IMG/VR virus record: IMGVR_UViG_2700989174_000013
Location: 1 to 5,014 of that record
From: a virus
Lineage: Duplodnaviria > Heunggongvirae > Uroviricota > Caudoviricetes
DNA: 5,014 nt
Direction: 5' to 3' (one strand)
Positions 1 through 3,000 of this stretch are shown here, one piece after another. Made by a program: the position numbers. The stretch's first letter is position 1; every line of letters begins with the position of its first letter.

Positions 1-3000
1 TTATCGCTCGCCACGGGAATATCTGCGGCAGCGGGCTTGTAATGGGTTAAGTGATAACAGATGTCTGGAAATATAGGGGCAAATCCATTCACCAACCACA
101 ACCACACCACTGATTGAAATAGTTCTAGGTGAACGCATTACATTATCTGTTACAGTCTGCCCTGATTGCATATTTTGAGTGGTAACCATCATAGGGCTAT
201 CAAATTCCATGTTTTCAGTTGCTGATAGTGACAAGAAATTATCTGGTTGGCCTTGTAGATGGAAGTAAACACCATCTTTGCCAGTGTAACGAAGCTGATT
301 AGAGTAAATCATTAAATTCTCTTTTGATTTCAAAGACTTAGCGCATTTTAATCATTTTTAACCAAGCCTTTGATATATAAGTATTTTCTCTGTTAAGCGT
401 GAGCTACGTAAATTCTATGAACCGCCCCGGGAATCCTGGAGACTAAACTTCCTGAGAAAGAGGTAAACAGGATGACTAAANNNNNNNNNNACCGCGCTGA
501 TGGTTCTTATCCGTTTTATTGAATCGGAGAACAAACTGTGAGCTATCAGCCTGGTGGTCTGGTTTTGCCTGATTTAAGCCGCCGTGGGTATTTGTCCAAG
601 AATGCTTCAAGCTCCAATCGTTTTGGCCTGGTGAATGGAGATGGGTTAAGCAAAGACTCTCGTTGCTGGTGTACTTTTTCGCGCTGGCGCTCAAGCATGG
701 ATAATGCGATTGCCTGTAGTTCTTCGTTAGTCATTGTCTGCACCTGGAAAGCAATTTACCGGAGTACCTCACACTACGGCAAAAATGTTTTATTGTTGCA
801 ACTTGCGTAATTATTCAGGTCAGTTTGGAACGCACTGTATAAACATAAATAACCTGATACTGTTGTGTGTTTTCAAAGAAAACACAGGTATTTTTCACAT
901 AAACCTTCCCCTTTTCATATTCGACCACTTAATCAAAAAACGGTTTTATACTTGTTGCCCCCACTGGGGTTAAATGTGAGACATGTCGCACTTTGTGCCA
1001 TGTGTCCTCGCTGATTTTAGGCGCGGTTCATTCATTCTTTCTGTTGGCATAAAGTATGGTATCGGTTGGGCGAATGAAAGGGACTCGGGTCATGGTCAGA
1101 CAATACCTGAGGCGTTAATTCGTTGAAAGAGATTGTGAATGGGGGAATAACTGAGTCTTAACTGCTGTGCGATAGCCCGGACAGATAGTTGCTCGTCGAA
1201 TCTGAGACGTAATGATTCTGGCAAATAAGTGCGAAAGCCGGTGATATCTAGTGTTGTTTGAGAGTTCATCGTTCGCGTCCATTAATACAGATGGACGCGA
1301 TTGTTGCCAGACAGGATAATTTTCACAAGACATCGCAGATAGAGTACTTACGATAATTTTTTATTTTATACAACAGATGCCCACGAAAAGAATTATTTTC
1401 AATAGACACCTGCATTACACAAAGTTGAACCGCCCCGGGAATCCTGGAGACTAAACTTCCTGAGAAAGAGGTAAACAGGATGACTAAAANNNNNNNNNNG
1501 CCAGAGGATTACGAAGGGCTTCATAAATATATGCTCTCACTAGGATTCAGGAGAACGATCCCCCATGGAGATGGTTCGTATAATCAACTCCCGGACGGAA
1601 CTTATGTTTCCGAAAAGGGCGGTGATATTTATCAAATTCGCAGCCAGATATCTGACTATGCAGACCGACTATCCGGGTATCGCGCGTCTGTTTTTGTTTG
1701 CGAATTCAGTCAATGCGCATGGTATTTATACCCCGCCAAGACCCGGTGAATATCCTGCACGGCCTTCTGCTTTGTAGAAGGCTTCTTCGCTATCATAATC
1801 GCCAGATTCCAGCGCTTCTTTAGCCAGCCAGATGCGTGCCCCAGTGCCTGCATTTGGCTCCAGTTGCTGGAGGCGTTTTGCATCTTCTAGGAGTAGAGCG
1901 ATAACGTGTTTTAATTCTGTCTCGTTCATTTTACTCACCTGAATGTCTTCCCAACCAACGACGTGCGCCAGCTTCGGTTTTAAACGTTTTGCTTTTGGTA
2001 TACGTTATGGCGGTGAATGTGCCGTCCTGGTTGGGGAACACGCCGTACACCGGAGATTCGTTGTTGCCAAGATCGATAGTATTCATGTTGACCCCATTTC
2101 CCCTTAACGCCGGGGTAGCGGAACTGTTTGCTGAGAACACCGTGCGGTGTCTTGATGAATAAAATTTAGAATAACCTAAGGAGGGTGATCAAGATTTTTG
2201 TGTAGAAAAACCTAAGTTTTTTGATGTAAAAAACACAAGTGTTTGAAAGTTTGTGCTTTTTATTACAGGGTGTGGAGAAAAAAGGGGATTATTTGTTTGC
2301 GCTTCTTTTGCGAGCTTTGAGTAGTTCTTCAAAAAGTTTGTTGAAATTTTCAACTCGAGCACGCATCTCTGACAACAGGGCCTTTTGCTCTGACTCAGGC
2401 AGTGCGTCGAACAGTTGAAGTAACTCTTTTTGATCTTCTGTCAGAATGGCTGGCTGATTATCCGGGATCGGTTCGCCTGGTTGTTTATCTTCATCCCCAA
2501 AAAGAAGCCAAGTCGGTGAGCACTGAAGCGCTTGGCTCAGTGCGAATAATCTTTTCCCCGCCGGCTGTGTTTCATCTCTTTCCCATTGAGAAATTGTTAC
2601 GTGAGCCACTTTGACCAGCTTACCTAATGCGGCCTGAGACAGTTTTAATTTTTTACGCCTATGTAAGAGGCGAGCACCGAAGGTTTCGTTTTTCATATTA
2701 GGGAATTCTAATTTTTCTTGACTTAGGTTTCTCTACGGCCTGGTTTCCTTAGGAAAATCTAAGGAGCTCGATATGTTGAAAATTGATGCTATAGCGTTTT
2801 TTGGCAGCAAAACAAAGCTTGCCAATGCCGCAGGAGTTAGGCTGGCAAGCATTGCTGCATGGGGGGAACTGGTTCCTGAAGGTCGCGCGATGCGCCTGCA
2901 AGAGGCATCTGGCGGGGAACTTCAGTACGACCCCAAAGTTTATGACGAATATCGTAAGGCAAAACGACCTGGGAAGGTGATTCATGAAAATCAGGCATGA

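Follow-up and report, generated by a model that had tools for sequence, protein, structure and literature searches.

The DNA described here is the 5,014-nucleotide stretch at positions 1 to 5,014 of the IMG/VR virus record IMGVR_UViG_2700989174_000013 (Caudoviricetes), referred to below in its full length as the window, and the element under study is a plus-strand open reading frame (ORF) that follows directly behind the second of its two gaps. The frame is probably the 3' remnant (codons 15–96) of a 'moron'-type accessory gene for a 96-residue protein in a Rac-like lambdoid prophage, and the window copy is very probably a pseudogene, namely a YmfI-family gene inactivated by the insertion sequence IS2. 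Base 1500 completes the GAG codon ahead of the frame, which starts at 1501; reading it through the window gives codons 15–96 plus a TGA stop at 1747–1749, three nucleotides before the stop at 1750–1752 of the original prediction, and a translation of PEDYEGLHKYML...AWYLYPAKTR. The first 42 nucleotides of the ORF, its 5' end, are absent from the entire window. At its 3' end, the frame shares 24 of its 249 nucleotides with the minus-strand gene for a 67-residue protein (1726–1929), for which an overlap of about 27 bp had been estimated. The frame and the gap before it are:

1501 to 1749, plus strand: remnant of a YmfI-family, GhoS-like gene, truncated at the 5' end, with start codon, strand beta-1, ribosome-binding site and promoter region missing
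1490 to 1500, no strand: gap 2 (10 N) and base 1500, most likely standing for a 1331-bp IS2, as in identical Shigella flexneri genomes

From base 1500 to its end (3515 nucleotides), the window matches three S. flexneri chromosomes (L009, L016 and L017) with 100% identity and that of S. flexneri 2457T (L015) with 99.9%. In the S. flexneri genomes, where the junctions were read directly, a 1331-bp element with 99.8% identity to annotated IS2 is located directly upstream of the frame, flanked by a 5-bp CTGAG duplication. With slashes marking the borders, the sequence runs ...aatgCTGAG / TAGACTGG..IS2..GCAAATCCA / CTGAG / ccagagg; in 2457T, the right junction is ...GGGGCAAATCCA / CTGAG / CCAGAGG... 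and the far side of the element reads ...ATGCCAACGTATCTCGCCAGAGTAGAACTATATAATG / CTGAG / TAGACTGGCCCC.... The insertion point is after codon 14, with the start codon and codons 1–14 on the far side, and window base 1500 is, according to the identical genomes, the final G of the right-hand CTGAG duplicate. The idea that a real gene has left its 3' part here, with the 5' part displaced, is therefore supported by the identical S. flexneri chromosomes, in which IS2 separates the first 14 codons and the upstream region from the remainder; the missing part is small, consisting of these 14 codons only. Deprived by IS2 of its start codon, strand beta-1, ribosome-binding site and upstream region, the window copy is regarded as a pseudogene. 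The fold model places beta-1 within the residues missing from the window, and the remnant would therefore be unable to form the sheet. A point against this account is that the window has the end of an IS3-family element to the left of gap 2, not that of IS2, the presence of IS2 being read across from the identical genomes.

In S. flexneri, a hybrid ORF of 96 codons, the same length as the native one, starts with a GTG inside the right end of IS2 and replaces the 14 native amino-terminal residues (L017 4181–4471, minus strand, equivalent to window 1501–1749 plus 41 nucleotides of IS2). Gene callers sometimes report this hybrid IS2–ymfI-like ORF as a protein. An 89-residue ORF at 1480–1749 of the window was rejected as an artefact, as it fuses the ATG of an IS3-family transposase to the frame across the 10-N run. 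Other inactivated copies of the gene are P0004 and P0008, which are frameshifted, and P0006, a deletion variant from S. sonnei.

The complete frame is present in Escherichia coli FDAARGOS_943 (locus L001) and in an O121 strain (L002), where it reads MNMPTYLARVELYNAEPEDYEG...AKTR and encodes 96–98 residues. Orthologues begin at the second methionine (MATYL or MPTYL), and a start at this position gives a protein of 96 residues (MPTYLARVELYNAE-PEDYEG...), with AAGGAA located 8 nucleotides before the ATG. The intact copy of FDAARGOS_943 is found at L001 4954–5250. Among 5426 complete E. coli genomes, 19 carry an intact ORF, in each case at full length, and none of the 19 copies is annotated in RefSeq. 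The frame is kept in related prophages, with orthologues of 88% identity in Salmonella, 72–79% in a metagenome-assembled genome (MAG) and 59% in Citrobacter; the ratio of non-synonymous to synonymous substitution rates (dN/dS, Nei-Gojobori method) is 0.34 against Salmonella and 0.12–0.14 against the MAG. On its own, an open frame of 83 codons is weak proof of a gene, as chance survival amounts to (61/64)^83, or about 0.02 per frame position. The protein-like frame noticed behind gap 2 in the original prediction has its counterpart in the complete 96-codon ORF of the E. coli relatives, and this intact ORF is a real gene under purifying selection, because it is complete in relatives, has dN/dS values of 0.12–0.34 and belongs to a family of 577 clusters. 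DNA homology between E. coli and Salmonella is limited to L001 4926–5275, a stretch that begins with the ribosome-binding site, includes the ORF and extends 25 bp past it, and the gene thus behaves as a 350-bp cassette.

The 96-residue protein matches the NCBIfam entry NF051477 ('YmfI family phage protein') over profile positions 3–88 of 89 (E 1.6e-14, 54.2 bits) and PHROG 8894, to which no function is assigned in that database, over profile positions 1–93 of 94 (E 7.2e-38). BLASTP against YmfI of the E. coli K-12 prophage e14 gives a full-length match, with 27% identity over 93 residues (E 6e-11). In a joint alignment, invariant positions are common to both proteins, while the 96-residue protein clusters with the Salmonella and Citrobacter proteins in a separate clade. 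A profile search of 1.84 billion representatives returned 577 clusters at E ≤ 1e-3, mostly of 92–100 residues. Members were found by tblastn in temperate phages of Pseudomonas, Burkholderia and Ralstonia and relatives in two Acidobacteriota MAG loci, in addition to the enterobacterial prophages. The ymfI gene of e14 resembles the intact gene also in its plus-strand site beside repressor-proximal leftward genes, in its convergent overlap with ymfJ and in its homologous 5' leader, which carries a TTCACCAC..GTGGTAT element. It differs in the length of the overlap (63 bp with ymfJ, compared with 24 bp for the window gene), in a 17-residue carboxy-terminal tail that the 96-residue protein does not have, and in the residues at positions R7, E9 and H22, which are conserved in the clade of the 96-residue protein and are H, R and E in YmfI. 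The equivalog cut-off of NF051477, 140 bits, is not reached by the 54.2 bits observed, which places the protein outside the equivalog, as a homologue.

GhoS (YjdK), a type V antitoxin endoribonuclease, is related to this family through its Pfam entry PF11080 (formerly DUF2622), which is matched by 31 of 61 sampled relatives at E ≤ 0.1, the best having an E-value of 2.4e-8. The relative P0045 scores 28.8 bits against PF11080, in register, where the gathering cut-off is 21, and NCBI gives the Salmonella orthologues the name 'DUF2622 domain-containing protein'. When the family is aligned to K-12 GhoS with hhalign, residues 1–66 fall on 7–72, again in register, with an E-value of 3.9e-4. The wider family borders Pfam GhoS, by a weak link that runs via intermediates only. 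Several results weigh against a close relationship. The hhalign probability is just 35%; the fragment has no Pfam match and the full protein has none at E ≤ 5, PF11080 included; and searches of the Protein Data Bank sequences with two profiles gave nothing credible, GhoS and BPSL1038 not being among the matches. A ghoT-like gene was not found adjacent, as nothing follows on the plus strand and the neighbour is a convergent, hydrophilic gene; neither was a hydrophobic small ORF seen on reading the 400 bp upstream. The 96-residue protein differs from GhoS in being prophage-borne and convergent with its neighbour, rather than part of a two-gene operon. In the literature on YmfI, DUF2622 and GhoS-like proteins, functional data or experiments on family members were not found.

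The location of the intact gene can be compared with the Rac prophage, where the genes were read in the order kilR (minus), kilS small RNA (minus), sieB (plus), ydaF (minus), ydaG (minus), racR (minus) and ydaS (plus), with a 4-bp overlap between sieB and ydaF. That Rac carries a plus-strand exclusion gene among its minus-strand early-left genes, the starting point of the original prediction, is correct. The spacer between kilR and sieB (Rac 2749–3105) is 91% identical to L001 4569–4921, to the left of the intact ORF; on the right, Rac ydaF and the DUF1391 gene share 86% identity. Between these homologous flanks, Rac contains sieB and this prophage a ymfI-like and a ymfJ-like gene. The proposed sieB-like position stands, given homologous flanks on both sides and the same orientation as Rac sieB, and the ymfI-like gene takes the place of sieB in this slot, with a ymfJ-like partner beside it, as is the case in e14.

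An exclusion or defence function had also been proposed for the frame. The gene might be a superinfection-exclusion or abortive-infection gene equivalent to sieB, made in the lysogen and acting by a mechanism unrelated to the membrane action of SieB, and the exact replacement of sieB between homologous flanks, with an upstream element in common, fits such a role. So do the Salmonella prophages, in which the gene is located in the variable region by cI, beside genes for a protein kinase, P63C and DUF1828, and the Citrobacter copy, which occupies another classical moron site, between Q and holin. The SieB proteins of Rac, lambda and P22 resemble the ymfI-like protein in being encoded in an orientation against the early-left operon, with the 3' end of the gene overlapping the next leftward gene, but they have no relation to the ymfI-like protein in sequence or predicted fold. 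BLASTP against SieB gives an E-value of 0.68, that is no similarity, and the Pfam SieB profile (PF14163) matches Rac SieB with 109 bits and the ymfI-like protein not at all. SieB is a membrane protein of 162 residues; we take the ymfI-like protein of 96 residues to be soluble, as no long hydrophobic stretch is seen by eye on reading its sequence. The PADLOC scan gave no match for the protein, experimental data on YmfI and a reported phenotype were not found, and the independent losses by IS2, frameshifts and deletion (P0004, P0006 and P0008) are those expected of a dispensable gene in decaying prophages. We therefore regard an exclusion function as unlikely.

How the remnant's intact counterpart might be expressed is suggested by two elements that flank it, an upstream motif and a hairpin:

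L001 4894–4920, L003 5435–5459, L018 3941–3965 and L025 3078–3104: TTCACCAC-N-GTGGTNT element
1761 to 1783 of the window, plus strand: stem-loop with a 10-bp stem, GGCCUUCUGC-UUU-GUAGAAGGCU, 12 nucleotides past the stop (−22 kcal/mol, z −3.2)

The motif, TTCACCAC-N(6–14)-GTGGTNT, is present once per locus, 35–65 nucleotides upstream of the slot gene, and is found ahead of Rac sieB, e14 ymfI and the ymfI-like genes of E. coli, Shigella and Salmonella. It could be read as a promoter, with a −35 box TTCACC, an 18-nucleotide spacer and an extended −10 box TGgTATCTT, or as a hairpin. The hairpin at 1761–1783 forms a terminator-like end to the cassette and is located inside the coding sequence of the minus-strand gene; in the Salmonella orthologue, the stem is followed by UUUUCUC (z −3.4). 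During the late SOS response of K-12, ymfJ is induced with a log2 value of 4.8, far above the value of about 2 for ymfI (PMC11002266), and this difference fits a ymfJ gene in the repressed early-left operon and ymfI as a separate unit. The intact gene would be transcribed alone from the conserved upstream element, ending at its own hairpin, and the product would be made in the lysogen, as that of sieB is. On the other side, a scan for consensus promoters found none on the plus strand at this site, the proposed promoter matches 8 of 12 positions plus TGn, and the hairpin of the window has no clean U-run. That the gene is an independently expressed lysogenic accessory gene is a proposition for which we see the chances as evenly divided.

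The AlphaFold2 model, calculated on a 28-sequence alignment, has a mean predicted local distance difference test (pLDDT) score of 76 and a predicted template modelling (pTM) score of 0.70. The predicted fold is ferredoxin-like, of the Cas2 type. Foldseek gave no match at E ≤ 1e-3; among the leading matches, GhoS has the highest TM-score (0.56/0.61), beside the PII-like PstA, and a search of the viral structures in BFVD returned weak matches to unnamed proteins only. All these predicted structural matches are weak and of a kind typical for the ferredoxin-like fold. When compared with the small nucleases Cas2, VapD and BPSL1038, Glu9 would, on the alignment, be located on beta-1 where Cas2 has its catalytic aspartate. 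However, there is no sequence similarity to these nucleases and the acidic residue is lost in the YmfI clade, where it is an arginine. Neither cas1 nor a CRISPR array was found near the gene, the contexts examined containing prophage genes only. In GhoS, R28 is reported as the residue most important for RNase activity (PMC4010927). In the hhalign register it aligns with His22, which is invariant in the clade and a glutamate in YmfI proper, a point against a GhoS-like reading; His22 at the R28 position is suggestive at most.

By analogy, the protein may act on RNA like GhoS and Cas2, binding or cutting particular transcripts, for which the candidates would be those of an infecting phage or those made from toxic early-left genes of the prophage itself, for example kil. 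We put forward this RNA-directed activity tentatively, as a possibility that has less than an even chance of being right by some distance. The protein could instead be a small ligand- or protein-binding regulator of the ACT or PII type, with the beta2-beta3 loop (PHGDGSYNQLPDGTY) as its binding loop: the best Foldseek E-values are those of PstA, a PII-like receptor of cyclic di-AMP, and the most conserved stretch is the long beta2-beta3 loop, which is modelled with low confidence. However, the PstA-type matches are no stronger than those to GhoS and Cas2, a sequence link exists for GhoS alone and it is GhoS that has the highest TM-score among the leading matches, making such a regulator improbable. 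A chance ORF, or an antisense shadow of the minus-strand gene, for which the missing annotation in all 19 E. coli RefSeq genomes with an intact copy and the missing start codon of the window copy might speak, is excluded by the conservation data, as just 24 of the 249 nucleotides overlap the minus-strand gene, dN/dS is 0.12–0.34 in frame, full-length homologues extend to several genera as well as to phages of Pseudomonas, Burkholderia and Ralstonia, and the fold model is fairly confident.

The window copy itself carries little weight, being what IS2 has left of the gene in a Shigella prophage that is decaying. The family to which we assign it was already catalogued; the intact gene is under selection and is nevertheless missing from the RefSeq annotation of 19 E. 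coli genomes, and the uncharacterised YmfI family is now tied, weakly, to the GhoS/DUF2622 fold. As an allelic alternative to sieB with the same flanks and upstream element, the gene is a reasonable candidate for an accessory function expressed in the lysogen. More generally, YmfI/DUF2622-like proteins might form a widespread phage-borne, lysogen-expressed family of small RNA-targeting proteins, interchangeable with sieB at the slot. We consider this broader proposal quite doubtful; if true, its members would either silence toxic early genes such as kil on their own, in a 'type V antitoxin-like' manner, or form a new exclusion system that cuts the transcripts of infecting phages. The family spans enterobacterial prophages, phages of Pseudomonas, Burkholderia and Ralstonia, and Acidobacteriota.

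To the right of the frame, the window contains the following features:

1726 to 1929, minus strand: convergent gene for a 67-residue protein, ATG start, stop at 1726–1728 (PHROG 30817, E 3e-49)
1726 to 1770, minus strand: tail shared with the partners in L018, L021, L024 and L004
1931 to 2086, minus strand: DUF1391 gene (ydaF/ydfA-like; PF07151, E 7e-26), the right flank shared with Rac
2289 to 2696, minus strand: helix-turn-helix (HTH) repressor in the racR/cI position (HTH_3, E 8e-14)
2773 to 3000, plus strand: cro-like gene (annotations and Pfam)
2984 to 3406, plus strand: YdaT-like gene (annotations and Pfam)

The amino-terminal 45 or so residues of the 67-residue protein are homologous to e14 YmfJ, and its gene has 74% DNA identity to e14 ymfJ. 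The carboxy-terminal tail (..AEGRAGYSPGLGGV) is read opposite the 3' end of the ymfI-like gene and the hairpin. Otherwise unrelated leftward partners share a tail (A)EGR(A/S)G.S.GLG.V, encoded opposite the 3' end of the cassette. A toxin-antitoxin pair formed with the convergent partner was rejected, since the partners in Salmonella, Citrobacter, the MAG and the Pseudomonas phage are unrelated in their amino-terminal parts; being alike only in the tail, they point to read-in to a mobile cassette rather than to a two-gene system. The window-type gene for the 67-residue protein is flagged by the NCBI annotation pipeline PGAP as a carboxy-terminally incomplete pseudogene.

The gene runs on the strand opposite that of its neighbours in all contexts examined. 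Convergent overlaps of 4–63 bp are present in e14, Salmonella prophages, the MAG, Citrobacter, Pseudomonas phage Cruim01 and Burkholderia phage Bups phi1, while in Ralstonia phage Dina the gene is convergent with the next gene without overlap. It is located in the repressor-side region in e14, Salmonella prophages, the MAG and Cruim01; in the Salmonella prophages and the MAG, kil lies on one side of it and the cI region on the other. In this prophage, it is found between kil/rha and the small leftward genes by the repressor, opposite the early-left operon, and in Citrobacter between Q and holin. A constant linkage to kil was rejected, as kil is absent from the Citrobacter, S. flexneri and FDAARGOS_943 contexts. 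In one Salmonella prophage (L020 5094–6140), a gene for a eukaryotic-type protein kinase is located between the ymfI-like cassette and cI. This placement suggests that the region serves as a hotspot, collecting cargo of the accessory or defence type.

In Rac, the counterpart of the 350-bp stretch that precedes the intact gene (L001 4569–4921, and 5846–6199 in S. flexneri L015) holds the annotated small RNA KilS. This stretch probably contains a KilS homologue, though a rha/ash gene stands in the place of kilR. The upstream region of L001 also contains a 22-nucleotide inverted repeat (4569–4590 and about 4701–4723) and a minus-strand terminator-like site at 4762–4735. Rfam identifies, both on the minus strand of L001, a C4 antisense RNA at 4307–4394 (75.7 bits) and isrK at 4419–4495 (61.5 bits); both fall within a gene that carries the annotation of a Rha/Ash family regulator, in its 5' part. 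This site is a P1/P7-type antirepressor immunity module adjoining the slot. The same search on the window found no RNA family.

The window itself is made up of three pieces joined by two 10-N runs, at 481–490 and 1490–1499, and its left part contains ends of two kinds of insertion sequence:

1 to 87: right end of IS2, from the same comparison with S. flexneri
1426 to 1489, plus strand: first 64 nucleotides of an IS3-family element, under 'IS3 family transposase' annotations and unrelated to the frame

The left end of the IS3-family element, which we take to be IS629-like, is repeated directly at 418–480, and both copies run into the 10-N gaps. The piece at 491–1427 maps to an unrelated E. coli locus adjoining an IS66 TnpA gene. 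As the pieces end in repeated insertion sequence ends and the second piece maps elsewhere, they need not adjoin in the genome, and the three are probably contigs of a draft Shigella assembly rather than neighbours.

Further to the right, repeated near-palindromes (TGTAACGC..GCGTTACA) are located at 3451–3472, 3642–3663 and about 3851–3871, just before and inside an O-like (ydaU-type) replication gene, and look like origin iterons. Measured against E. coli L001, the replication genes of the window (3484–4261 and 4268–5014) are decayed: the O-like gene falls into two frames that overlap, 3484–4122 and 3986–4261, and the ydaV/DnaC-like gene at 4268–5014 contains a premature TAG at 4607–4609.

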